Shown here: one piece after another, positions 13,666 through 26,765 of the stretch
Layout: every line of letters begins with the position of its first letter
How positions within the stretch are numbered: position 1 is the first letter of the stretch
Source of the DNA: an uncultured Candidatus Rokubacteria bacterium
GTDB taxonomy: Bacteria > Methylomirabilota > Methylomirabilia > Rokubacteriales > CSP1-6
NCBI GenBank assembly: GCA_963827505.1
Contig: CAWHBD010000003.1
Coordinates: 1,544,252-1,608,251, forward strand
Reading direction: 5' to 3'
DNA: 64,000 nucleotides
Notes under the pieces: generated by a model
Told to the model about the DNA's origin: nothing
Database searches by the model: none
What the model saw: only the letters and a program-made list of their open reading frames with translations
Translations under genes and position numbers: made by a program

Positions 13666-14280
13666 ATGCGCCGGGTCGCGGTGGTCGCTCTCTCGTTGAG
13701 CCTGCTGATCATGGCGCTCCCGGGTCCGGCACCCGCCCAGGTCTATCGCTACACCGACGAGTCGGGCCAGAACCATTACGTGGACGGGCTCGAGAAGGTC
13801 CCCGGCCGCCATCGTGCCTCGGCGGTCCCCCTGTCCATGCGCAACACGCCGACCTCGACGGCTCCACCGGCCGCGGCCGGCACCGTTCGCCCGGCCGGCA
13901 CCGCGGTCATCAAGTACACGCCGGGGCAGCGCATCATGGTGGACGTGAAGATCAACGGAGGCTTCACCGCACGGCTGTTGCTGGACACCGGTGCGGATCG
14001 CACGATGATCAGCCCCCGGACGCTGGTGGCGGCCGGGGTGCCGGTCACCCGGCCGGTCGCGACGGGCACGATCACCGGCGCCACCGGGACAGACCGGATC
14101 AACTACGTCGTCGTCGAGTCCCTCGAGGTGGGTGAGGCCCGGGTCGGCCGCATGCCGGTCGGCTCCTACGAACTGGCGGGGACGGAGACCGGCGACGGCC
14201 TGCTGGGCCGCGACTTTCTCGACCAGTTCAAGATCACCTTCGACGCCGGCAACGGCGAGGTGCACCTGGCCCCGAAGTAA
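13666..14280 (+). CDS. Secreted retropepsin-like aspartyl protease with N-terminal DUF4124-like segment
   Basis: Signal peptide; QVYRYTDESGQNHY; LLDTGA catalytic motif; GLLGRDFL. Confidence 0.85.
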   Translation: MRRVAVVALSLSLLIMALPGPAPAQVYRYTDESGQNHYVDGLEKVPGRHRASAVPLSMRNTPTSTAPPAAAGTVRPAGTAVIKYTPGQRIMVDVKINGGFTARLLLDTGADRTMISPRTLVAAGVPVTRPVATGTITGATGTDRINYVVVESLEVGEARVGRMPVGSYELAGTETGDGLLGRDFLDQFKITFDAGNGEVHLAPK

Positions 14281-14320
14281 GCCGCTCCGGACCCGTGTGG
14301 TACCATGACGCTTCCTGGTC

Positions 14321-17125
14321 ATGGACTACAAAGCCACGCTGAACCTGCCGAAAACCGACTTTCCCATGAAGGCCAACCTCACCGCGGCGGAGCCGCGGAT
14401 GCTGGCCTGGTGGGAGGAGATCGGCATCTATCAGCGGCTGCGCCAGGCGGCGGCCGACCGTCCACTGTGGATCCTGCACGACGGGCCGCCCTACGCCAAC
14501 GGGCACATCCACCTGGGGCACGTGCTGAACAAGGTCCTCAAGGACGTGATCGTGAAGTCGCGCTCGATGGCCGGCTACAACGCGGTCTACGTCCCCGGCT
14601 GGGACTGCCACGGGCTGCCGATCGAGCACCAGGTCGACAAGAGCTCGGCCTGGACCAGCCGGGGGTGGACGTGCGGCTGGCGATGGATCCGATCGAGAAG
14701 ATCCGGCGCTGTCGCGAGTACGCGCTGAAGTTCATCGACATCCAGCGCGAGGAATTCAAGCGGCTCGGCGTCTTCGGCGACTGGGACCATCCGTACATGA
14801 CGATGGCCCCTGCCTACGAGGGGGTCATCGTGCGCGAGTTCGGGCGCTTGGTCGGCCGCGGGCTCGTGTACAAGGGCCTCAAGCCGGTGCACTGGTGCAT
14901 GCACTGCAAGACCGCTCTGGCCCAGGCCGAGGTCGAGTACGAGGACGAGCGGGCGCCGTCGGTCTACGTTCGCTTCCCGCTGGTGGGTCCGCTGCCGGGG
15001 TTGCCGGAGGCGCCGAAGCCCTCGCTGGCGATCTGGACCACCACGCCATGGACGCTCCCGGCCAACCTCGCCATCGCGGTGCATCCCGAGGAGGACTACG
15101 TCGCCCTCGAGGGTCGGGGCGAGACACTGATCGTCGCCGCCAAGCTCGCCGACACCTTCGCCGCGCTGGCCGGTCTGGAGCGGCCGCGCCGGCTGGCCAC
15201 TCTGCCCGGTCACGCGCTGGCCGGTCTCGAGTTCCGCCATGCCTGGCTCGACCGTACCGGCAAGGTCGCGGCGGCGCCGTTCGTGGCGATGGACACCGGC
15301 ACCGGCCTCGTGCACATCGCCCCCGGCCACGGCGAAGAGGACTACGATCTGGGCCGGACGCTGGGGCTGCGCATCTACAACCCGGTGGACGACGACGGGC
15401 GCTTCATCCCCGAGGTCGAACACTTTGCCGGGCTGACCGTGTGGGAGGCCAATCCCAAGATCATCGCGCACCTGGCCGAGCGCGGCGCACTGATCGCCCA
15501 GGTGCCGTTCGCGCACACCTATCCGCACTGCTGGCGGTGCAAGAACCCCACACTGTTCCGGGCGACCGAGCAGTGGTTCGCCGCGCTCGACAAGCAGGCG
15601 CTCCGCGAGCGCACGCTCAACGCCATCCGTCACGGCGTGCACTGGATCCCGCCGTGGGGCGAGGACCGCATCTACAACATGGTCGCCCACCGCCCCGACT
15701 GGACGCTGTCGCGCCAGCGCGTGTGGGGCGTGCCCATCGTCGCCTTCACCTGCGAGGGGTGCGGTGGGCTGCTGCTCGACGAGATGGTGATCGAGCACGT
15801 CGCCCGGCTCTTCGGCGAGGGGCGCGGCATCGAGGAGTGGTACCTGCGGAGCGAGGCCGAGCTGATGCCGGCCGGTACTCGCTGTCCGAGTTGCGGAGCG
15901 ACCGACCGCTTCCGCAAGGAGACCGACATCCTCGACGTGTGGTTCGACTCCGGGTGCAGCCACGCCGCTGTGCTGGAGACGCGGCCCGACCTGCGGCGGC
16001 CGGCCGAGATGTACATCGAGGGCTCGGACCAGCATCGCGGCTGGTTTCACTCCTCGCTGCTGGAGTCGATGGCCACGCGCGGGGAGCCACCCTATCGGAC
16101 CGTGCTCACCCACGGCTTCTTCGTGGACGGCGAGGGACGGAAGATGTCGAAGTCCGTCGGCAACGTGATCTCCCTCGACGACCTGCTGCCGAAATACGGC
16201 GCCGAGATCCTGCGGCTGTGGGTCGCCGCCGAGGACTACACCGAGGACATCCGGGTCTCTTTCGAGATCCTCGACCGGCTGGCTGACGCCTACCGCCGGA
16301 TCCGGAACACGTTCCGGTTCCTGCTCGGCAACCTGGCCGACTTCGACCTCCAGCGCGACCGCCAGCCCTACGAGTCGCTGGACGAGGTGGATCGGTTCAT
16401 CCTCGACCGGCTGGCCCGGCTGGTCGATCGCGTCACCCGGGCCTACGAGGAATACCAGTTCCACACGGCGTTCCACACCGTCCACAACTTCTGCGCGGTG
16501 GATCTGTCGGCGCTCTATCTCGATGTCATCAAGGACCGGCTCTACACGTCGGCCGCGGCCGACCCCCGGCGGCGCGCCGCCCAGACGGTGTGCCACGAGG
16601 TCTTCGCCGCTCTGGCCCGCCTGATGGCTCCGCTGATGACGTTCACCGCCGAAGAGGCGTGGCGATACCTGCCCGGCGCCCGCGCGGAGAGCGTGCACCT
16701 GGAGCGATTCCCCGAGGTGCCGCTCGCGTGGCTCGACGACACGCCTCAAGCGCGACTGGGACCGCCTGCTCGAGGTCCGGCGCGAGGTGGCCCGCGCGCT
16801 GGAGCTGGCCCGCGCGCGCAAGCTCATCGGCAGCGGCCTCGAGGCCGCCGTGCGCATCACGAGCGCCCCCGAGGATCTGCCGGCCCTGCTGGGGGCCAAG
16901 CGGAAGCTGCTGCAGACGCTCTTCATCGTGTCTCGGGTCGAGCTGGGCCCGGGCCCGCAGGGGGCGGTGCACTACGAGAGCCAGGAGATCCCCGGCCTCG
17001 TCATCGACGTCGACCGTGCCCCCGGCGACAAGTGCGAGCGGTGCTGGATGCGTAGCCCTGCCGTGGGGGCGAGCCAGGCGCATCCCGGCCTGTGCGATCG
17101 CTGCGTGGCCGTCGTCGGCGCGTGA
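14321..17125 (+). CDS. ileS: Isoleucine--tRNA ligase (two apparent frameshifts)
   Basis: [30 protein letters not shown] and KMSKS; C-terminal zinc finger CERCW...CDRC. Confidence 0.97.
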
Positions 17126-17601
17126 CCGTCGTGCTGCTGCTGGCCGGCGCCATCGTGGTGTTCGACCAGGTCACCAAGCTCGCCGCCCTCGACCGCCTTC
17201 AGCTCGGCGTGCCGATCAGCGTGATCGATGGATGGCTCTCGCTCACGCTCGTCCTCAACCCCGGGCTGGCCTTCGGCCTGCTCGGCGGCGTGCCCGCGAA
17301 GTGGCGATGGCTGGTGGCGGCGCTCTCGCTCGTGGCCCTCGCCGTGCTGGCCCGGGTCGCGCTCCGGGTGCTTCCCGACGGAGGCTGGCCGGGACGGCTG
17401 GCAATCGGGCTGATCTTCGGAGGCGCCGTCGGCAACCTCATCGACCGCGCGCGGTTCGGCGCCGTCGTGGACTTCGTCGACGTGCACTGGCGGGGGTGGC
17501 ACTGGCCCGCCTTCAACGTCGCCGACTCGGCGATCACCATCGGCGTCGTGCTGCTGGCGCTGCGCCTCATGAGCGAGCGCTCGACGCCCCGATCCGGCTG
17601 A
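17122..17601 (+). CDS. lspA: Lipoprotein signal peptidase II
   Basis: DQVTK, NPGLAFG, GNLIDR, VVDF and FNVADSAI; follows ileS. Confidence 0.95.
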   Translation: MTVVLLLAGAIVVFDQVTKLAALDRLQLGVPISVIDGWLSLTLVLNPGLAFGLLGGVPAKWRWLVAALSLVALAVLARVALRVLPDGGWPGRLAIGLIFGGAVGNLIDRARFGAVVDFVDVHWRGWHWPAFNVADSAITIGVVLLALRLMSERSTPRSG

Positions 17602-17605
17602 CCCC

Positions 17606-18535
17606 ATGCAACGCCTGTCGCTGGTGGTCGCCGCGGCCGCCGCCGGCGAGCGTCTGGACCGCTGGCTGGCCGCGCACGTCCCCGGCCTCTCCCGCGCGCG
17701 CCTGCAGGCGCTGATCGCCGGCGACCACGTCCGCGTGAACGGCGCCTCCCGGAAGCCGTCGCACCACGTGGTGGCCGGTGAGTGTGTCGAGGTCGAGATC
17801 CCGCCGTTGCCGCCCGAGGAGCTCGAGCCGGAGTCCATCGCGCTCAGCGTGATCCACGAGGACGAGCACGTCCTGGTGCTCGACAAGCCGGCCGGCATCG
17901 TCGTGCATCCCGGCGCCGGCAACGCGCGGGGCACGCTGGCCGCCGCCGTCCTGGCTCACGCGCCCGCCGTCGCCGGCGTGGGCGGCCCGCGCCGGCCCGG
18001 GGTCGTGCACCGCCTCGACAAGGACACCTCGGGGCTCCTCGTGATGGCCAAGACGGCGGCGGCCTACGACTCGCTGACCGCCCAGCTGGGAGCCCGCACG
18101 GTGCGGCGCGTGTACCTGGCCGTCACCCATGGGAGGCTGGCCCCGGCCGAGGGGATTGTCGACAAGCCGATCGGACGGGACCCCCACGACCGCACGCGCA
18201 TGGCCGTCCGGCGGCTGGGGCAGGGGCGGCGGGCCGTCACCCACTACCGCGTCCTCGAGCGCTTCACCGAGTTCACCTTTCTGGAGGTCCGGCTGCAGAC
18301 CGGCCGCACTCACCAGATCCGCGTGCACCTGGCTGACCTGGGTTACCCGATCGCGGGTGACCCGACCTACGGCGGCCGGCGACGACGCGAGCTGCCGGTC
18401 GCGATCGACGGCTTCGCCCTCCACGCGACCGCCTTGGCCTTCATCCACCCCGCAACGGGGCAGCCCGTCGAGTTCGCCTCGGCCTTACCACCGCGCCTCG
18501 AGCGGCTGCTGTCTCACTTGCGCCACTCGCCGTAA
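17606..18535 (+). CDS. rluD: RluA/RluD family pseudouridine synthase
   Basis: S4 domain (ERLDRWL); HRLDKDTSG catalytic motif; TGRTHQIRVH. Confidence 0.9.
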   Translation: MQRLSLVVAAAAAGERLDRWLAAHVPGLSRARLQALIAGDHVRVNGASRKPSHHVVAGECVEVEIPPLPPEELEPESIALSVIHEDEHVLVLDKPAGIVVHPGAGNARGTLAAAVLAHAPAVAGVGGPRRPGVVHRLDKDTSGLLVMAKTAAAYDSLTAQLGARTVRRVYLAVTHGRLAPAEGIVDKPIGRDPHDRTRMAVRRLGQGRRAVTHYRVLERFTEFTFLEVRLQTGRTHQIRVHLADLGYPIAGDPTYGGRRRRELPVAIDGFALHATALAFIHPATGQPVEFASALPPRLERLLSHLRHSP

Positions 18536-18599
18536 CTGGAAGTGGCACCGAACGTCCACACCCTGTTGTGGAAGTCCGCATCGTTGTGTACGCGGTATG

Positions 18600-18614
18600 T
18601 GGCACAGGGCTTGC
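18600..18614 (+). promoter_or_regulatory. Sigma54 (-24/-12) promoter upstream of glmU-glmS1
   Basis: TGGCAC-AGGGC-TTGC is an exact match to TGGCAC-N5-TTGC, 30 nt before the ATG. Confidence 0.7.
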
Positions 18615-18644
18615 CGTCCCCGATGCTAGTATGAAGACCTCCGC

Positions 18645-20891
18645 ATGAATGGGTTGACCACGGTCATCCTGGCGGCCGGCGAGGGCAAGCGGATGCGCTC
18701 ACGGACGCCGAAGGTGCTGCATCCGCTGTGCGGCCGCCCCCTCATCGGGTACGCCCTCCGGCTGGCCCGGACGCTCGCTGACCGGGTCGTGCTGGTGGTG
18801 GGCCCCAACGCCGACGGCGTCCGCGCGCTGGCGGGCGACGGCGTGACGATCGTCGAGCAGCGCGAGCGCCTCGGCACCGGCCACGCCGTGCTGCAGGCCC
18901 GGGCCGCCTGCCCGAGCACCGGTCCCGTGCTGGTGCTGGCCGGCGACATGCCCCTTCTTCTGCTGTCCACCCTGGAGCGGCTCGTCGAGCACCAGCGCAC
19001 GACGGCGGCGGCGGCCACCGTTCTCACCGCGGTCGTCGCGCGCCCCTACGGCTACGGGCGCGTGCTGCGCGTAGCCGGGCGCGTGAGCCGCATCGTGGAG
19101 GAGCGCGACGCCACCGACGACCAGAAGAGGGTCGACGAGATCAACACCAGCGTCTACTGCTTCGACGCCCGCCGGCTGTGGCCCGCCCTCGGGGAGATCA
19201 AGCCCAACAACGACCAGGGCGAGCTCTACCTGACCGACGTGGTGGAGCTCCTGGCCCGGGCCGGGGCCAAGGTCGAGGCGGTGTCCGTCAGCGACCCGGC
19301 CGAGGCGCTCGGCATCAACGACCGCCGGCAGCTCGCCGAGCTGGCGGCCATCCAGCGCCGTCGCATCCTCGACCGGCTCATGGTCGAGGGTGTCACCGTG
19401 ATCGATCCGGCCGCGACCTACGTCGACGTCGACGTCGAGGTCGGCGAGGACACCGTGCTCCACCCGGGAACGACGCTGCAGGGCAGCGTGCGCATCGGCG
19501 AACGATGCACCGTGATGCCGGGCAGCCGCATCCGCGACTCGGTGCTCGGTGACGAGGTCACCGTCCTCGACGGCGCGGTGATCGTCGACAGCCGTGTGGC
19601 CCCCGGCCAGACGGTCGGGGCCCACGCGCGGCTCGACGGGCGGGAGACGGACGCCGCCGCGCGCGTCGAAGTGGGCGGAGCTGTCGACCCGCGCGTGCGT
19701 GCGCTGCTGGAGGGCGGCGCCTGCATCCCCCGGCCCGAGGCGGTGCTCATCGGCCCTGAGGTCAGGCTCGAACGCGTCGTGGCCCGTGGCCTTGTCCTGC
19801 ACCCCGGCACCAAGATCGTGGGCGAGCGTACGCTCATCCTCGAGGGCGCCGAGGTGGGCTACGAGGAGCCGGCCACGCTGGAGAACGCGGTGCTCGGTCG
19901 TCGCGTGAAGATCCAGGGCGGCTTCGTGAAGGACTCGGTGCTGTTGGACGGATGCGAGGTCCGCCAGGGCTTCCACGGCCGCGAGGGCTGCCTGCTCGAG
20001 GAGGACAGCTACTTCGCCCACAACGTCGGACTGAAGATGACGATCGTCTTCCCGTTCGTCGTGCTGGGCAGCCTGATCAACTTCTGCGACTGCCTGCTGG
20101 CCGGGGGGACGAGCCGCAAGCACCACAGCGAGGTGGGCAGCGGCTTCATTCACTTCAACTTCAGCCCGCGCGGTGACAAGGCGACGCCGTCGATGTTCGG
20201 GGACGTCGCCCGCGGGGTCATGCTCGACCAGGCGCCCATCTTTCTCGGGGGCCTCGCCGGAGTGGTAGGTCCGACCCGGATCGGCTACGGCTCCGTGCTC
20301 GTCGCTGGCGGGGTGTACCGCGCCGACTACGACGAGGACCTGCTCGTGCTCGGCGAGCGTCGCCGTGACGGCAGCACCGCCTACCGGCCCCGCGCCCTCG
20401 GCGCCATCCGCGCCAAAGTGAGCAAGAACGTCTTCTACCTCGCCGAGCTGGCCGGGCTATGGGCGTGGTATCGGCACGCTCGGCCGCGGATCGCGGGCCC
20501 CGACCCGCTGGCCCAGGCGGTGATGGCCGCCGGGCTATCGATGGTCGAGGCGAACATCGACGAGCGTCTGAAGCAGATGGACCGGTTCCGCGACCTCGTG
20601 CGGGAGTGCCTGCCCGAGGCGGCCGGCGCGACGCCGCTGGCCGGCGAGTGGCGCGCGTTCGTCGACGGCTGGGACGCCGTCCGTCCGATCCTCAAGGACT
20701 ACCGCGCGACCGAGGGGCGGGTGGAGGCGCGGGAGGCCTTCTGCGCGCGGCTGGCCGCCGGTCCGTCGTACACGGCGGCGATCCAGACGCTGAGCCCGGA
20801 CGACCGCCGCACCGGCACCGCCTGGCTCACCTCGATCCGATCGGACCTGATGGACCGCTGCCAGGCCGCGCTACCGCTCATCACGACCTAG
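18645..20891 (+). CDS. glmU: GlmU-like fusion: N-acetylglucosamine-1-P uridyltransferase, partial LbH, second divergent hexapeptide-repeat domain and helical tail
   Basis: ILAAGEGKRM, PKVLH, LGTGHAV, YGR, EINT and ELYLTD; canonical similarity stops after VGAHARL; 748 aa uninterrupted ORF directly upstream of glmS. Confidence 0.85.
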   Translation: MNGLTTVILAAGEGKRMRSRTPKVLHPLCGRPLIGYALRLARTLADRVVLVVGPNADGVRALAGDGVTIVEQRERLGTGHAVLQARAACPSTGPVLVLAGDMPLLLLSTLERLVEHQRTTAAAATVLTAVVARPYGYGRVLRVAGRVSRIVEERDATDDQKRVDEINTSVYCFDARRLWPALGEIKPNNDQGELYLTDVVELLARAGAKVEAVSVSDPAEALGINDRRQLAELAAIQRRRILDRLMVEGVTVIDPAATYVDVDVEVGEDTVLHPGTTLQGSVRIGERCTVMPGSRIRDSVLGDEVTVLDGAVIVDSRVAPGQTVGAHARLDGRETDAAARVEVGGAVDPRVRALLEGGACIPRPEAVLIGPEVRLERVVARGLVLHPGTKIVGERTLILEGAEVGYEEPATLENAVLGRRVKIQGGFVKDSVLLDGCEVRQGFHGREGCLLEEDSYFAHNVGLKMTIVFPFVVLGSLINFCDCLLAGGTSRKHHSEVGSGFIHFNFSPRGDKATPSMFGDVARGVMLDQAPIFLGGLAGVVGPTRIGYGSVLVAGGVYRADYDEDLLVLGERRRDGSTAYRPRALGAIRAKVSKNVFYLAELAGLWAWYRHARPRIAGPDPLAQAVMAAGLSMVEANIDERLKQMDRFRDLVRECLPEAAGATPLAGEWRAFVDGWDAVRPILKDYRATEGRVEAREAFCARLAAGPSYTAAIQTLSPDDRRTGTAWLTSIRSDLMDRCQAALPLITT

Positions 20892-21015: not shown

Positions 21016-21037
21016 CCAGACGGAAGGGGGTCTCGTC

Positions 21038-22879
21038 ATGTGCGGCATCGTCGGCTACGTCGGGGAGAAGAGTGCGGTCGGGATCATCGTCGACGGCCTC
21101 AAGCGTCTGGAGTACCGGGGGTACGACTCCGCCGGCGTTGCCGTGATCGGCGCGGGCGGCGCCCTCGAGGTGCGGCGGGCGGCCGGCCGCATGAAGATGC
21201 TCGAGGGGGTCCTTCGTGAGCGACCCATCGCGGGCCGCATCGGCATCGGCCACACGCGCTGGGCGACCCACGGGCGTCCGTCCGACGAGAATGCGCATCC
21301 CCACACCGACTGCTCGGGCACGCTGGTGGTGGTCCACAACGGCATCCTCGAGAACTATCTCGAGATCAAGGAGCGGCTCCTCGCCGAGGGGCACACGTTC
21401 AAGTCGGAGACCGACACCGAGGTCCTGGCCCATCTCATCGAGCACCATCTCAGGGCCGTCGGTCGGCTCGAGCGGGCGGTGAAGCTGGCGCTGGCCGAGT
21501 ACCGCGGCTCCTACGCCGTCGGCGTGGTCTCGACGGCCGCGCCCGACCGGCTCGTGGCCGCCAAGCACGGCGCCGGCAGCGTCGTGGTCGGCCTCGGCCG
21601 CGGCGAGATGTTCGTGGCCTCGGACATCCCGGCCATCCTCGGCCACACGCGCGACGTCGTCATCCTGGAGGACGGCGAGGTGGTGGTGGTGACCGCCGAG
21701 GGGGTGGAGCTCAGCACGCTGGACGATCAGCCCGTGCAGCGCGACCCCGTGCGCATCCTGTGGGACCCGATCATGGCCGAGAAGGGCGGCTACCGGCACT
21801 TCATGCTCAAGGAGATGTACGAGCAGCCGCGCGCCATCACCGATACCTTCCGGGGCCGCGTCGCGCCCGAGACCGGCAACATCCTGCTGCCCGACGTCAC
21901 GCTCGACCCGTCGACGTTGAAGGCGATCCAGCGCGTGGTCTTCGTGGCGTGCGGCACCGCCTCCTACGCCTCCCTGCTCGGCCGCTCGATGATCGAGAAG
22001 CTGGCCGGCCTGCCGGCCGAGGTGGACCTGGCCTCGGAGTTCCGGTATCGCGACGCGATCGTCGGGCCGGAGACTCTGGTGATCGCAGTCTCTCAGTCGG
22101 GTGAGACGGCGGACACCCTGGGGGCGGTGAAGGCGGCGCGCTTGAAGGGCGCGCCCATCCTGGCCATCACCAACGTCGTCGGCTCCGCCCTCTCGCGTGA
22201 GGCCACCGCGACCCTCTACATGCACGCCGGCCCCGAGATCGGCGTGGCGTCGACCAAGGCGTTCTCCACGATGGTCGTCGCTTCCTACCTGCTGGGGCTG
22301 TGGCTGGGCCGCCTGCGCGGCGTCCTGACGGCCGAGGACGTGCGCAAGCGCGTACAGGACCTGGTCGAGATTCCGCGCCTGGTCGAGAAGACCCTCGAGC
22401 TGGACGGCGCGGTGGCGGCCCTGGCCCGCCACCTGTCCTCGGCCCGTGACTTCCTCTACCTCGGCCGTGGCCTGCAGTACCCCATCGCTCTGGAGGGTGC
22501 CCTGAAGCTGAAGGAGCTGTCCTACATCCACGCCGAGGGGTACGCCGGCGGCGAGATGAAGCACGGTCCCATCGCGCTGATCGACGACGGCTTCCCGGTG
22601 GTGGCTCTCGCCCCCCGCGACGGCTCCTACGAGCGCATGCTGGGCAACATCGAGGAGGTACGCGCGCGGGAAGGCCAGGTGATCGCCGTCGTCCAGACCG
22701 GCGACAAGCTGGTCGCCTCCAAGGCCCAGCACATCATCGAGGTGCCGGCCGCGGCCGACCTGCTGGCCCCGCTGATCACCGTGGTGCCGCTGCAGCTGCT
22801 CGCATACCACATCGCGGTGCGCCGCGGCTGCGACGTGGACCAGCCGCGCAATCTGGCCAAGAGCGTCACCGTCGAGTAA
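21038..22879 (+). CDS. glmS: Glutamine--fructose-6-phosphate transaminase, copy 1
   Basis: MCGIVGY, GHTRWATHG, SQSGETADT and PRNLAKSVTVE. Confidence 0.97.
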   Translation: MCGIVGYVGEKSAVGIIVDGLKRLEYRGYDSAGVAVIGAGGALEVRRAAGRMKMLEGVLRERPIAGRIGIGHTRWATHGRPSDENAHPHTDCSGTLVVVHNGILENYLEIKERLLAEGHTFKSETDTEVLAHLIEHHLRAVGRLERAVKLALAEYRGSYAVGVVSTAAPDRLVAAKHGAGSVVVGLGRGEMFVASDIPAILGHTRDVVILEDGEVVVVTAEGVELSTLDDQPVQRDPVRILWDPIMAEKGGYRHFMLKEMYEQPRAITDTFRGRVAPETGNILLPDVTLDPSTLKAIQRVVFVACGTASYASLLGRSMIEKLAGLPAEVDLASEFRYRDAIVGPETLVIAVSQSGETADTLGAVKAARLKGAPILAITNVVGSALSREATATLYMHAGPEIGVASTKAFSTMVVASYLLGLWLGRLRGVLTAEDVRKRVQDLVEIPRLVEKTLELDGAVAALARHLSSARDFLYLGRGLQYPIALEGALKLKELSYIHAEGYAGGEMKHGPIALIDDGFPVVALAPRDGSYERMLGNIEEVRAREGQVIAVVQTGDKLVASKAQHIIEVPAAADLLAPLITVVPLQLLAYHIAVRRGCDVDQPRNLAKSVTVE

Positions 22880-24294: not shown

Positions 24295-26469
24295 GTGTCA
24301 GCCCGGCTCGAGCACCTCCTCGACGATCTGAACCCCGCGCAGCGTGAGGCCGTGGTCGCCGGCGACGGACCGTTGCTCGTCCTGGCCGGCGCCGGCAGCG
24401 GCAAGACCCGGGTCATCGCCTATCGCATCGCCTGGCAGCTGACCCGGCAGGAGCTGTCGCCGCGCAACCTGCTCGCCGTCACGTTCACCAACAAGGCGGC
24501 GGGCGAGATGAAGCGTCGCGTGGAGGCCCTGCTGGCCCCGGCCGGCATCAGGCCCCCGCTCATCGCCACCTTTCACTCGATGTGCGTGCGGGTCCTGCGC
24601 CAGCACGGCGGCCACGTCGGCCTGCCCCCGCACTTCACGATCTACGACGAGGACGATCGCCTCGCCCTGGTGAAGGAGTGCATGAAGGAGGGCGAGCTGG
24701 CCGACCGCACGTTCACGCCGAGCGCGGCCGTCCACCGCATCTCCTACCTCAAGAACCAGATGACCGCGGTGACCGAGGCCCTGCGCGATGCCCGGGGGCC
24801 GTGGGAGAAGAAGGCCGCGCTGGTCTACTCGCGCTACGAGAAGCGGCTGCGGGAGACAGGCGCGGTGGACTTCGACGACCTCCTGCTGCTGGTGGTGCGG
24901 CTGCTGGCCGAGACGCCGGAGGTGCTCGCCTGGTACCGGGGGCTCTGGCGCTACGTGCTGGTCGACGAGTACCAGGACACCAACCGCGCGCAGTACCGGA
25001 TCATCCGCCTGCTCACCCAGGAGCATCGCAACGTCTGCGTCGTCGGCGACTCCGACCAGTCGATCTACAGGTGGCGGGGCGCGGACATCCGCAACATCCT
25101 CGACTTCGAGGACGACTTTCCGGGCACCAAGGTCGTGCGGCTGGAGCAGAACTACCGCTCGACCCAGCGCATCCTGGCCGTGGCGGCCGGAGTCATCGCC
25201 CACAACGTCGCGCGCAAGGACAAGACGCTGTGGACGGAGAATCCGGCAGGGGAGCCGGCGCGCGTCTACCGCGCGTGGGACGAGCACGAGGAGGCCTCGT
25301 TCGTCGCCCAGTCGCATCCTGGGGCTGCGCGGCGAGGGCGTGGCGTCGGGACGGGGTCGCGGTCTTCTACCGTACGAACGCGCAGTCCCGCGTGCTCGAG
25401 GACGCGCTGCGGCGCGGCCCGCATCCCCTACGTCATCGTGGGCGGCGTGCGCTTCTACGAGCGGCGCGAGATCAAGGACACCCTGGCCTACCTGCGGCTC
25501 GCGGTGAATCCGGCCGACGACGTCGCTTTCCGGCGGGCCATCGGCGCCCCCAGCCGCGGGCATCGGGCCCACCACGCTGGCCCGCCTGGACGAGGAGTCC
25601 GCGCGGCAGAGCCGCCCGCTGCTGGCGGTGGCGGCCGAGCCGCCCGCCGACATCCGCGGCAAGGCGGGCCGGACGCTCCAGGACTTCGCGGCGCTGATCG
25701 CCCGGCTGGCCGGGCAGCGGCGCGACCTCGCCCCTGCCCGCCTTCATCGACCTGGTGCTCGAGCAGACTCGGCTACCGGGAGGCGCTGCGCCAGGAGCGG
25801 TCGCCGGAGGCCGAAGGCGCGGCTGGAGAACCTGGAGGAGCTGATCGCCGCCGCCGAGGACTTCACGCACGTCGAGGCGGAGCCGACCCTGGAGGGATTC
25901 CTCGACGGCGTGGCGCTGGTGGCCGACGTCGACGAGCTGAAGGACGCCGACTCGCGGGTGACGCTCATGACCCTGCACTCCGCCAAGGGGCTGGAGTTTC
26001 CGGCGGTGTTCCTCACCGGGCTCGAGGAGGGCGTGTTTCCCCACGCCCGATCGATGAACGATCCGCGACGAGATCGAGGAGGAGCGGCGGCTGTGCTACG
26101 TCGGCGTCACCCGCGCCCGCGAGCGGCTGGTCCTGTCGTGCGCCCTGCACCGGCGCATCCACGGCTACGGGGTGGGCGAGCCCTCGCGCTTCCTGCGCGA
26201 GATGCCCGAGGAGCAGCTCCTGCCGCTCAACGCCGGCGCCGGCCGCGTGCAGGAGCCGGCCGCCCCGGCCTTGGCCGTGCCCCGCTACGAGCCGGAGGAG
26301 ACGGCGTGGCCGATCAAGGTCGGCGCCCGTGTGCGCCACGCCCGCTTCGGCGAGGGGCTGGTGGTGGGCGTCGAGCGGGACGGCGCCGACATGATCGTCA
26401 CCGTCGGCTTCGCCAGCGTCGGCCGCAAGCGGCTCTCGCTGCAGTACGCGCACCTGGAGGAGACTGTAG
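24295..26469 (+). CDS. pcrA: UvrD/PcrA DNA helicase (several frameshifts)
   Basis: LNPAQ, AGAGSGKT, TFTNKAA, DEYQD, LEQNYRS, TLHSAKGLEF and EERRLCYVGVTRA; C-terminal Tudor-like VRHARFGEG. Confidence 0.93.
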
Positions 26470-26472
26470 GCC

Positions 26473-26765
26473 GTGATCAGTCTCGCGAGGACGTCGAGCA
26501 CGTGGCGCGGCTCTCCCGGCTGGCGCTGGGCGAGGCCGAGCTGGAGCGCATGCGCGAGCAGCTCGACGGCATCCTCGCCTACATCGACACGCTGCGGGCG
26601 CTCGACACCGCGCGGCGTCGAGCCGACCTCCCACGCGGTGCCGCTCGTCAACGTGATGCGCGAGGACGAGGCGCGCCCGTGCCTGTCCCAGGACGACTGC
26701 CCTCGCCAACGCGCCCGACCGGCAGCGCGGCCTTCTTCCGCGTGCCCCGGATCATCGAGGACTGA
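26473..26765 (+). CDS. gatC: Asp/Glu-tRNA amidotransferase subunit C (frameshifted)
   Basis: EDVEHVARLSRL...GVEPTSH...NVMRED...FFRVPRIIE. Confidence 0.9.

Follow-up and report, generated by a model that had tools for sequence, protein, structure and literature searches.

UDP-N-acetylglucosamine (UDP-GlcNAc) is an essential precursor of both peptidoglycan and lipid A, and GlmU's acetyltransferase site is a studied antibiotic target. In the bifunctional GlmU of the Escherichia coli type (EC 2.7.7.23 / 2.3.1.157; PDB 1hv9, 2oi6 and 3fww), a protein of about 455 aa, we take the catalytic residues to be His363, Glu349 and Ser405, and the ligands of the glucosamine-1-phosphate (GlcN-1-P) phosphate group are presumably Arg333, Lys351 and Asn386. 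Two other systems resemble parts of the arrangement described here: the archaeal-type GlmU (Sulfolobus ST0452; TIGR03992), whose stand-alone C-terminal half in some Thermodesulfobacteriota likewise supplies an acetyltransferase beta-helix apart from a truncated bacterial GlmU, and LpxA and LpxD, which have a trimeric left-handed beta-helix (LbH) followed by a C-terminal helical domain. In genome surveys, some lineages are said to "lack GlmU" or to be without its C-terminal domain.

The gene analyzed here lies in a 64,000-nucleotide stretch of DNA from an uncultured Candidatus Rokubacteria bacterium of soil (hereafter, the window), and all coordinates refer to its + strand. A single glmU-like ORF runs from an ATG at 18645 to a stop at 20891 without internal stops and encodes 748 aa. 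It is preceded by the housekeeping genes ileS, lspA and rluD (14305..18535; TIGR00392 716.5, TIGR00077 106 and TIGR00005 297.3 bits) and directly followed by a canonical glmS of 613 aa (21038..22879; TIGR01135 805.8 bits, cut-off 418). Its neighbors in the window are hence rluD and glmS and not glmM, which is found on another contig of the same genome (468 bits). The uninterrupted frame and the adjacency to glmS had both been reported in a preliminary description of this locus, which proposed a GlmU with its acetyltransferase half replaced by a divergent hexapeptide enzyme, and both stand.

Like the bifunctional enzyme, which is also found with glmS beside its gene, the fused protein has a uridyltransferase domain that leads, through the connecting helix, into the first coils of the beta-helix. 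The GlcNAc-1-P uridyltransferase (nucleotidyltransferase) domain (residues 1-229; 18645..19331) matches PF12804 (E 6.4e-23), PF00483 and TIGR01173, retains 90 of the 91 columns of positions 1-233 that are invariant in eight canonical Rokubacterial GlmUs, and is predicted with a pLDDT of about 90, so that it is intact, as first claimed. The long connecting helix (residues 230-250, 19332..19394; helix 227-247 in the model) follows, and all 15 invariant columns at canonical positions 234-262 are kept in the same comparison. Conservation then falls to 10 of 24 such columns in a stump of about five canonical LbH coils from which the catalytic residues are absent (residues 251-335; 19395..19649); Pfam recognizes Hexapep at 263-297 and Hexapep_GlmU at 289-332 in it, its mean identity among the fused forms is 76%, and it was modelled at low confidence (pLDDT 39-58). 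The match to TIGR01173 joins residues 5-347 to positions 2-345 of 452 and stops there, before the catalytic region, in agreement with the first reading of the sequence; its 344.6 bits (328.7 in the genome-wide search) fall under the cut-off of 366.85 because the remainder of the canonical protein is missing. After a variable linker (residues 336-352; 19650..19700), with a mean identity of 57% among the fused forms, several of which lack up to 12 alignment columns here, a second and complete LbH begins (residues 353-590; 19701..20414). This putative acetyltransferase core is followed by an all-helical domain of about 160 aa (residues 591-748; 20415..20888). In contrast to bifunctional GlmU, therefore, the fused protein has no canonical positions 346-452 and carries instead a replacement that is only about 20% identical, extended by loop insertions and by the helical domain.

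Comparison with relatives of the same genus shows how this architecture is placed in the genome. In G040 a canonical GlmU (533.8 bits, positions 2-449) occupies the syntenic site, and the window is collinear with that genome as far as 19466 and then from 21037 onward, with 1570 bp in between standing in place of 582 bp; the upstream ileS/lspA/rluD stretch is collinear with both G040 and G048. Since a same-genus relative carries an ordinary glmU at this locus, the 3' part of the gene was replaced in place: the catalytic acetyltransferase part of GlmU, as had been suggested from the sequence, has given way to a module of about 400 aa. In the taxonomic family, a canonical GlmU scores above the cut-off in 61 of 76 genomes (G063 included); the fused form occurs only in the genome of the window (G000) and in G048. 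No canonical glmU was detected in the former (62.9% complete), where none of the ten TIGR01173 matches exceeds the cut-off and the best is the window gene itself, and the 97% complete G048 has no GlmU besides the same fused form. An archaeal-type GlmU was not found in the window's genome either. A 404-aa protein with nucleotidyltransferase and LbH domains (G000:C3:25779) was considered as a second GlmU and turned out to be ManC-like (NF052502, 318 bits). Non-catalytic beta-helix domains do trail nucleotidyltransferase domains elsewhere, the ManC-like protein of this genome being an example.

The fused gene is under purifying selection, with an overall dN/dS of 0.18 relative to the G048 orthologue; by parts, the values are 0.23 for the stump, 0.12 for the C-terminal beta-helix, the lowest of the gene, and 0.26 for the helical tail. 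GC3 (94.8% in the N-terminal part, 92.7% in the C-terminal module) gives no compositional sign of a recent transfer.

Residues 340-748 match at least 78 proteins of 411-465 aa (E 1e-92 to 1e-101) at an identity of 41-49%, with 92-99% of the module covered, so the preliminary description was correct in likening the module to a family of stand-alone GlmU-like proteins from Desulfobacterota. The members of this family, of about 415 aa, are mostly from Thermodesulfobacteriota and all bear the helical tail; relatives are encoded in at least 559 species genomes, and clustering at 50% identity (E <= 1e-30) divides the family into 339 clusters. A member also occurs in the cultured Desulfatibacillum alkenivorans DSM 16219. 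Pfam and NCBIfam have no model for the family and none that matches its tail, and no paper on any member was found in the literature. In databases these proteins are named "UDP-N-acetylglucosamine pyrophosphorylase" or "protein GlmU", the former being a misnomer. The fused forms constitute one clade inside the family tree (SH-aLRT 99), and the protein encoded in the window shares with the stand-alone proteins the same helical tail and all 64 columns that are invariant in an alignment of 34 family members at 41-47% identity. The two forms differ in their context: whereas the fused gene lies beside glmS, the stand-alone gene is separate, unlinked to the truncated glmU and usually beside glmM. 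The latter adjoins it in 23 of 35 loci, in 21 of them immediately downstream, and the three representatives scanned were confirmed as glmM (557-583 bits to TIGR01455).

The phyletic pattern points in the same direction as the fusion. The 23 family-positive genomes of Thermodesulfobacteriota comprise one with a full-length GlmU (G281, the sole genome with both proteins), 17 in which GlmU is cut short at model positions 235-357, and five with no match, whereas a full-length GlmU is present in 84 of the 128 family-negative genomes; these counts come from a single set of 151 related, hence not independent, genomes, and they may miss genes because ten GlmU candidates were scored per genome and genome quality is unreported. 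None of five family-negative genomes with a truncated GlmU encodes a family member. All four candidates scanned from these genomes are instead a separate archaeal-type GlmU half (TIGR03992 positions 241-392, 141-159 bits), a C-terminal half that is absent from the five family-positive genomes searched for it.

As for its fold, profile comparisons and structural models indicate that the module is homologous to the acetyltransferase domain of GlmU, although highly diverged from it, and consists of an LbH followed by the helical domain. In the profile-profile comparison (hhalign), module residues 10-233 aligned with canonical GlmU positions 242-441 over 199 columns with a probability of 98.0% (E 1.9e-13). 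The alignment opens with the helix/turn motif that the preliminary description had seen mirrored past the linker, so that the restart of the beta-helix proposed there is corroborated. Searched against PDB sequences, the family profile gave 17 matches at E <= 0.01, all of them GlmU. Pfam and NCBIfam models applied to the C-module alone gave weak GlmU/LbH matches only (LbH_EIF2B at E 0.043, Hexapep_GlmU at E 0.1) and none for the tail, and Hexapep matches were obtained for 18 of the 34 family members. With VIA-align, run over 48,161 chains, the top three matches of the model were GlmU domains (2qkx, Z 14.9, rmsd 4.2, 145 aligned; 1hm0, Z 14.7; 4aa7, Z 14.3) and the 50 chains at Z >= 8 were LbH proteins for the most part, in line with the LbH fold expected for this module. 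ST0452 is among the matches (5z09, Z 11.1) yet belongs to a different family and does not possess the helical tail. LpxA and LpxD rank below GlmU (Z 12.5-10.5); the C-module matches no lpxA or lpxD sequence model, and the tail of the fused protein is much longer than theirs.

The model of the C-terminal beta-helix reaches pLDDT values of 94-98 and the helices of the tail (589-742), which had also been noticed at the outset, 84-98. In the first monomer model, built from the module by itself, pLDDT was below 50 over module residues 160-240, a region for which confidence came only with a deeper alignment and the trimer. Because this region was poor in the first model, Foldseek returned a weak result with it: nothing in the PDB at E <= 0.001, the best match being GlmU at 1.1e-3 with low TM-scores. 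All three runs of a homotrimer of the module gave a score of 0.94, compared with 0.00 for the best of three controls, with a partner pLDDT of 90 and at least 90% of contacts common between runs, although this score may reflect memory of solved LbH trimers, a well-known class. In the calibration of the tool, 20 of 30 solved one-chain pairs and 1 of 23 single chains attained this score mark; the calibration covers two copies only, modelled without a user-supplied alignment such as the one used here, so that these counts hold only roughly for the present trimer. The fold is that of bifunctional GlmU, whose trimeric state the module would also share. The predicted interface (module residues 119-123, 136-140, 159-167 and 196-202) takes in invariant residues.

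Where the module departs from GlmU is at the catalytic center. The preliminary description saw a counterpart of the canonical catalytic region at the equivalent place of the second beta-helix, but the catalytic His is not found at that place: the residue aligned to His363 of E. coli is Ser476 with HMMER, Cys481 with hhalign and Asp482 with MAFFT, and a His appears there solely in a pairwise alignment displaced by about one coil, so that four alignments give four differing answers. Gly462 stands at the Glu349 position and Gly536 at that of Ser405 in both the HMMER and the MAFFT alignment. The same two alignments pair Arg446, Lys464 and Asn505, which are invariant over 123 rows, with canonical Arg333, Lys351 and Asn386, the counterparts being placed one residue off by hhalign. 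Within residues 446-543 fall 41 of the 64 family-invariant columns, among which a new set is prominent (His459, Cys481, Asp482, His494, Glu496, His503, Asp511 and Lys512), and beside the putative active-site region the family has loop insertions of its own, of 6 and about 12 residues. The best reading of these alignments is that of a remodelled active site, in which the substrate ligands would be kept while the canonical catalytic His has no aligned counterpart. Arg446, Lys464 and Asn505 would serve as ligands of the sugar phosphate, and the invariant His459, His494, His503, Glu496 and Asp482 are candidate catalytic residues.

Taken together, these results make it probable that the module is the GlcN-1-P N-acetyltransferase of this organism. 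The fused gene would be the only GlmU of the bacterium, with an ordinary GlcNAc-1-phosphate uridyltransferase as its N-terminal half and with a stump that, its catalytic residues lost, is probably just a trimerizing stalk. Most likely, the module trimer would transfer the acetyl group from acetyl-CoA to GlcN-1-P at the subunit interfaces, and the acetylated product would then be uridylylated by the N-terminal domain. The corresponding module of Thermodesulfobacteriota is a separate protein encoded beside glmM, in genomes where GlmU is truncated to its uridyltransferase part. The Rosetta-stone argument first advanced from the fusion next to glmS, namely that it would identify the family as an alternative GlcN-1-P acetyltransferase, is strengthened by the linkage to glmM, the near-exclusion with full-length GlmU and the lack of another GlmU in the genome, while the acetyltransferase activity as such is still something that we infer. 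Against this reading speak the alignments, in which the catalytic dyad of canonical GlmU is not conserved in place, the non-catalytic beta-helix domains found behind nucleotidyltransferase domains in other enzymes, the presence of both the family and a full-length GlmU in G281, and, in the window, a gene that is not beside glmM.

There is some room, albeit limited, for a mechanistically distinct hexosamine acyltransferase, in which the catalytic base would have moved to a neighboring coil or to a loop specific to the family (His459, His494 or His503), the donor, the acceptor or a metal may differ, and the tail may either dock a partner such as GlmM, GlmS or a carrier protein or itself sense a metabolite. 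The module may also be a distant relative of the DUF4954/DUF6819 proteins (PF16314, PF20683) of Bacteroidota and Spirochaetota. The latter kinship, for which a language-model likeness to the family of 0.81-0.88 is a lead only, received no support from HMM searches: none of 34 family members matches these models at E <= 1, and the window's genome contains no match at E <= 10. One publication (PMC7725333) describes these two phyla as having no GlmU. Were the kinship true, a single hidden superfamily would close the gap left by the "missing GlmU acetyltransferase" of several phyla.

We consider it unlikely that the module acts in the hexosamine pathway with a chemistry different from that of the GlmU C-terminal domain, be it on another acceptor (GlcN-6-P, ahead of the GlmM step, or the already uridylylated UDP-GlcN), with another donor (an acyl carrier protein, acetyl phosphate or another acyl-CoA) or by a metal-assisted mechanism through the invariant His/Cys/Asp/Glu cluster. 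The loss of the His363, Glu349 and Ser405 positions in favor of a new invariant set, together with the loop insertions near the active-site region, would fit this possibility, as would the extra helical domain after the beta-helix, an order also seen in the acyl carrier protein-dependent LpxA and LpxD, which are among the structural matches (Z 12.5-11.2), and the appearance of gamma-carbonic anhydrases, metal-binding LbH trimers, at Z of about 11. Nevertheless, the residues at the GlcN-1-P phosphate ligand positions are kept, the closest structures are GlmU domains, ahead of LpxD and of the carbonic anhydrases, and the family substitutes exactly for the C-terminal half of GlmU in the phyletic pattern.

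A non-catalytic module seems to us still harder to defend. In this view a beta-helix with a regulatory or scaffolding role, in the manner of eIF2B epsilon/gamma, GMPPA or ADP-glucose pyrophosphorylase, would sense a metabolite or organize GlmU and GlmM, with the acetylation carried out by another enzyme, for example a GNAT acting on GlcN-6-P. The canonical position without its catalytic His, the weak Pfam matches to LbH_EIF2B and Hexapep_GlmU, the eIF2B and GMPPA/GMPPB chains among the fold matches (Z 9-10.7) and a helical tail with no known catalytic counterpart all speak for it. Yet no part of the gene is more constrained than the beta-helix core, many of its 41 invariant columns are polar or charged and they are spread over 98 residues lining the predicted subunit interface, and in five of five family-positive genomes no other GlmU-like acetyltransferase half was present, in a search directed at GlmU-like halves.

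Finally, the junction at 19635-19700 was checked in independent sequence data, as the preliminary description had proposed, and is supported. Contigs from three other soil studies bridge it without indels (X3, 19319-20063, 1 difference; X4, 18934-20132, 2 differences; X5, 19331-20236, 4 differences), G048 is collinear with the whole gene (80.6%), and 40 proteins of 740-760 aa with the same fused architecture come from many assemblies; an assembly chimera is thereby ruled out. A 133-nt contig from an RNA run is identical to 19331-19463 and six further RNA contigs are 90-95% alike; none crosses the junction, and these data are too weak for a claim of expression. An artefactual ORF, arising from chimeric assembly, from an indel-caused read-through of two genes or from a decaying gene, is accordingly a negligible prospect, even though indel errors do occur in this assembly (3.4 kb downstream, a pcrA-like gene is broken up over three frames), the genome is estimated at only 62.9% completeness (7.0 Mb in 4 contigs) and other metagenomes contain some joints that skip gene parts (sides of 20-30 letters, depth 2-13), since those joints have fewer than 31 letters on one side and should not count as bridging, and the dN/dS of the gene also argues against an artefact.

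The natural fusion provides independent genomic evidence that an uncharacterized family supplies the acetyl-transfer step, and it points to the stand-alone proteins as the missing acetyltransferase of bacteria of the sulfate-reducer type. If this is true, pathway reconstructions would have to be corrected for many Thermodesulfobacteriota and some Rokubacteria, and there would be grounds for a new family model. The case would also show how the active site of a beta-helix acyltransferase can be rebuilt while its substrate ligands persist.

The fused GlmU-like ORF (18645..20891, + strand) runs from an ATG start over 748 aa without interruption. Pfam places a nucleotidyltransferase domain (PF12804, E 6.4e-23) at residues 7-133, and a nucleotidyltransferase match (PF00483) at 6-211. 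Residues 263-297 match hexapeptide repeats and 289-332 a hexapeptide stretch of GlmU type, and in the NCBIfam GlmU models residues 5-347 correspond to positions 2-345 of 452. The protein scores 344.6 bits with the GlmU model TIGR01173, just under the cut-off of 366.85, because the final hundred positions of the model have no counterpart. Of the columns that do not vary among eight canonical GlmUs from its taxonomic family, the protein keeps (i) 90 of 91 in the uridyltransferase domain, (ii) all 15 across the connecting helix and the helix start, and (iii) only 10 of 24 in the remaining coils of the stump (residues 251-335); nothing canonical is found past about residue 335. The preliminary description had the canonical enzyme stop after its first beta-helix coils, and this is borne out both by the end of the TIGR01173 match at position 345 and by the loss of canonical invariants after about residue 335. 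We consider it probable that the module that follows (residues 340-748) is a glucosamine-1-phosphate N-acetyltransferase standing in place of the catalytic part of GlmU. The former beta-helix stump would have been retained to act as a stalk; for the helical tail, a regulatory or docking role is possible.

In Pfam, the module alone gave only faint matches (LbH_EIF2B, E 0.043; Hexapep_GlmU, E 0.1), and its 12 NCBIfam matches were all weak, 10 of them being to GlmU models and the best having an E of 9.4e-7 over model positions 235-431. Aligned by hhalign, the profile of the module family matched the eight canonical GlmUs over 199 columns (family 10-233 opposite GlmU 242-441; probability 98.0%, E 1.9e-13), and all 17 of its matches to PDB sequences at E <= 0.01 were GlmU. 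These profile matches make the homology of the family to the GlmU acetyltransferase domain clear. The AlphaFold2 model of the full-length protein, built on a 123-row alignment, has a mean pLDDT of 86.1, with about 90 in the uridyltransferase domain, 39-58 in the stump (here 248-345) and 94-98 over residues 350-748, which are modelled as a beta-helix followed by helices at 589-742. An earlier module-only model (34 rows), of low quality across module residues 160-240, was the one used in the VIA fold comparison with 48,161 PDB representatives. The top three matches were GlmU acetyltransferase domains (2qkx, Z 14.9, rmsd 4.2, 145 aligned; 1hm0, Z 14.7; 4aa7, Z 14.3); below them came LpxD (Z 12.5) and, at Z about 11, gamma-carbonic anhydrases along with other hexapeptide N-acetyltransferases. 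Furthermore, prediction of module residues 8-250 in three copies scored 0.94 in all three runs, the best of three controls scoring 0.00; the partner pLDDT was 90, and the runs had no fewer than 90% of contacts in common. In the calibration of the method, the mark was reached by 20 of 30 solved same-chain pairs and 1 of 23 single chains, counts that come from two copies at most and no user alignment and that apply to this prediction only roughly. As LbH trimers are abundant among solved structures, the score is read as likeness and not as proof.

In the 34-row family alignment, 41 of the 64 invariant columns lie within module residues 107-204 (446-543 of the full-length protein). We compared the residues of this putative active site by a HMMER profile alignment to GlmU in Yersinia/E. 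coli numbering and by a MAFFT alignment with six canonical GlmUs. Both agree in placing Arg446, Lys464 and Asn505 opposite canonical Arg333, Lys351 and Asn386, and Glu496, Gly462 and Gly536 opposite Asn377, Glu349 and Ser405. The roles of the E. coli acetyltransferase residues were reportedly set out by Olsen, Vetting and Roderick in 2007; of those named, all but Ser405 have a counterpart that does not vary among the eight canonical sequences, and in place of Ser405 these have an invariant Thr. The canonical His363 position holds Ser476 (HMMER), Cys481 (hhalign) or Asp482 (MAFFT) and no His in any of these three alignments; His493 reaches it only where a pairwise phmmer alignment is displaced by roughly one coil. 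Two other readings of the module are considered unlikely: that it is an acyltransferase but differs in its donor, its acceptor or the use of a metal, and, with a slightly lower probability, that it is a non-catalytic regulatory beta-helix. With the module read as the acetyltransferase, the catalytic base may have moved to His459, to His494 in an inserted loop, or to His503. In the predicted trimer, the interface returns at module residues 101-105, 119-123, 136-140, 159-167 and 196-202, a spacing that fits the HMMER coil register once inserted loops of 6 and some 12 residues are allowed for, and this register would put the invariant His120 of the module (His459) one coil above the His363 equivalent.

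The junction, for which spanning sequence had been proposed as a check, is bridged near-identically by contigs of three other soil or rhizosphere studies, over 19319-20063 with one difference (X3), 18934-20132 with two (X4) and 19331-20236 with four (X5), in each case with no listed indel; 11 further joints were listed, whose sides of 20-30 letters are too short to count as bridging. In addition, G048, a 97%-complete genome of the same genus, shows collinearity over 13691-20891 at 80.6% identity, and the same architecture is found in 40 proteins of 740-760 aa with module identities of 58-100%. Between our genome (G000) and G048, dN/dS is 0.17 in the uridyltransferase domain, 0.23 in both stump and junction, 0.12 in the second beta-helix and 0.26 in the tail. 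Fused forms differ most from one another in the junction (336-352), with 57% mean identity and up to 12 alignment columns deleted, which would be expected of a linker. That the fused ORF is an artefact has a negligible probability, and it is sound despite indel errors elsewhere in the assembly. The latter comprises 7.0 Mb in 4 contigs, and its estimated completeness of 62.9% is low probably because of such errors. A pcrA/uvrD-like helicase gene (24295-26476, + strand) is split over three reading frames that break near 25550 and 26022 and cover model positions 1-414, 411-585 and 570-724, which indicates indel errors. Besides, the match of ileS (14305-17055, + strand) begins only at ORF residue 131 (model position 112) and that of glmM (G000:C2:333822-334946) at model position 65; these may be further frameshifted N-termini.

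Canonical GlmU was found over the cut-off in 61 of 76 sampled genomes of the taxonomic family (about 524-567 bits; the count takes in an unpublished genome, G063), and a partial match within a frame of about 750 aa only in G000 and G048. In G040, another species of the genus, GlmU is canonical (533.8 bits, positions 2-449); along ileS-lspA-rluD and into glmU its locus is collinear with the window as far as 19466, and collinearity resumes at 21037 from glmS onward. The collinear flanks and the exchange of 1570 bp in the window for 582 bp in G040 between these two points therefore indicate that the 3' part of glmU was replaced in place. GC3 is 92.7% in the module and 94.8% in the N-terminal part, and composition no longer sets the module apart. 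An unrooted module tree was built from the full set of 76 stand-alone rows and from 15 of the 41 fused-type rows (P0043, P0044 and every third row), with six canonical rows left out; in it the fused forms make up one side of a branch with SH-aLRT 99. P0044, a protein of 583 aa encoded on a 4.3-Mb contig, lies with P0043 next to the fused clade. It joins some 165 residues of beta-helix coils to the module, lacks a uridyltransferase domain, and could represent an intermediate or have been split secondarily. In a rokubacterial relative (G128:C31:14980-16330), canonical glmU lies in two adjacent frames (positions 2-321 and 320-451), probably through a frameshift or sequencing error and not a true split.

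The module aligns over 92-99% of its length, at 41-49% identity, with 78 listed stand-alone proteins of 411-465 aa, most of which have no domain listed in Pfam and which, where named by their source, are called 'UDP-N-acetylglucosamine pyrophosphorylase' or 'protein GlmU'. Scanning one genome per species, relatives occur in at least 559 genomes, of whose best 80 there are 51 Thermodesulfobacteriota by record titles (26 Desulfobacterales, 19 Syntrophales); a cultured carrier is Desulfatibacillum alkenivorans DSM 16219. Among 1.84 billion representative proteins, the family profile matched 339 at E <= 1e-30, rising to 756 at 1e-10 and to 1588 at 1e-3. MAGs labelled Promethearchaeia (Asgard archaeon; L077), Verrucomicrobiota (L031), Nitrospirae (L050) and Ectothiorhodospiraceae (L062) also carry members, which could reflect gene transfer or mis-binning. 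Gene context was sampled in 35 loci (the 37 of 80 with full flanks, minus L009 and L031). A gene of about 450 aa adjoins the stand-alone gene in 23 of them, directly downstream on the same strand in 21, and is glmM in the three representatives scanned (557-583 bits, cut-off 447.55); other neighbours are a NagB-like gene (13/35), pyrG (12/35) and a GlmS-like gene of 1240-1302 aa (10/35). This double-length GlmS-like protein (L016:1720-5442, L027:9191-13099 and eight more loci) scores 231-236 bits with TIGR01135, under the cut-off; in Syntrophales/Smithella its gene clusters with the stand-alone family, glmM, the NagB-like gene and pyrG.

Five genomes with the stand-alone protein gave no GlmU above the cut-off, and three of them have a uridyltransferase-only GlmU (254-268 aa, 245-276 bits, positions 2-235/246). 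In a fixed sample of 151 Thermodesulfobacteriota genomes searched with both family and GlmU queries, 23 were family-positive at E <= 1e-30 and 128 negative. Scoring ten candidates per genome, in related genomes that are not independent and whose quality is unreported, we found (i) full-length GlmU in 1 of 23 positive versus 84 of 128 negative genomes, (ii) GlmU truncated at positions of about 235-250 in 9 versus 14, (iii) GlmU truncated at 310-357 in 8 (at 323-357) versus 12, (iv) a C-terminal piece only in 0 versus 6, and (v) no GlmU match at 1e-30 in 5 versus 12. The truncation point of 323-357 is that of the fused protein. The one positive genome with a full-length canonical GlmU (G281; 551.9 bits, positions 3-450) is a case of natural redundancy or a transition state. 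Five negative genomes with truncated GlmU gave no family match even at E <= 1e-5, and all four candidates scanned from them (L125, L126, L127 and L128, in G248, G164, G238 and G165) are a different stand-alone protein of 269-289 aa. Its C-terminal 150 residues correspond to positions 241-392 of the archaeal-type model TIGR03992 (141-159 bits), the acetyltransferase part; this is a second kind of split GlmU. Conversely, no TIGR03992 match past position 333 was found at E <= 1e-10 in the family-positive G000, G048, G005, G004 and G002. The one long TIGR03992 match in G000 is a ManC-like guanylyltransferase.

Full-text searches around GlmU, Desulfobacterota, Rokubacteria and Methylomirabilota found no paper on the family of the module. 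Some lineages are described as lacking GlmU or its C-terminal domain, with no substitute named in the relevant passages of that source, and Bacteroidota and Spirochaetota are among the phyla reported there without GlmU (PMC7725333). Language-model queries with module residues 1-409 and 245-409 (window 19662-20888) returned DUF4954/DUF6819 proteins of these two phyla, with a likeness that is weak overall (0.81-0.88; beta-helix 0.88, helical tail 0.85). HMM searches gave no support for this kinship, which is a lead only. Taken together, the counts of GlmU states and the reciprocal absence of the archaeal-type half suggest that the acetyl half is supplied in three largely exclusive ways, namely canonically fused, as a separate archaeal-type protein, or by the module family, and the fusion is independent evidence for the latter as the acetyl half.
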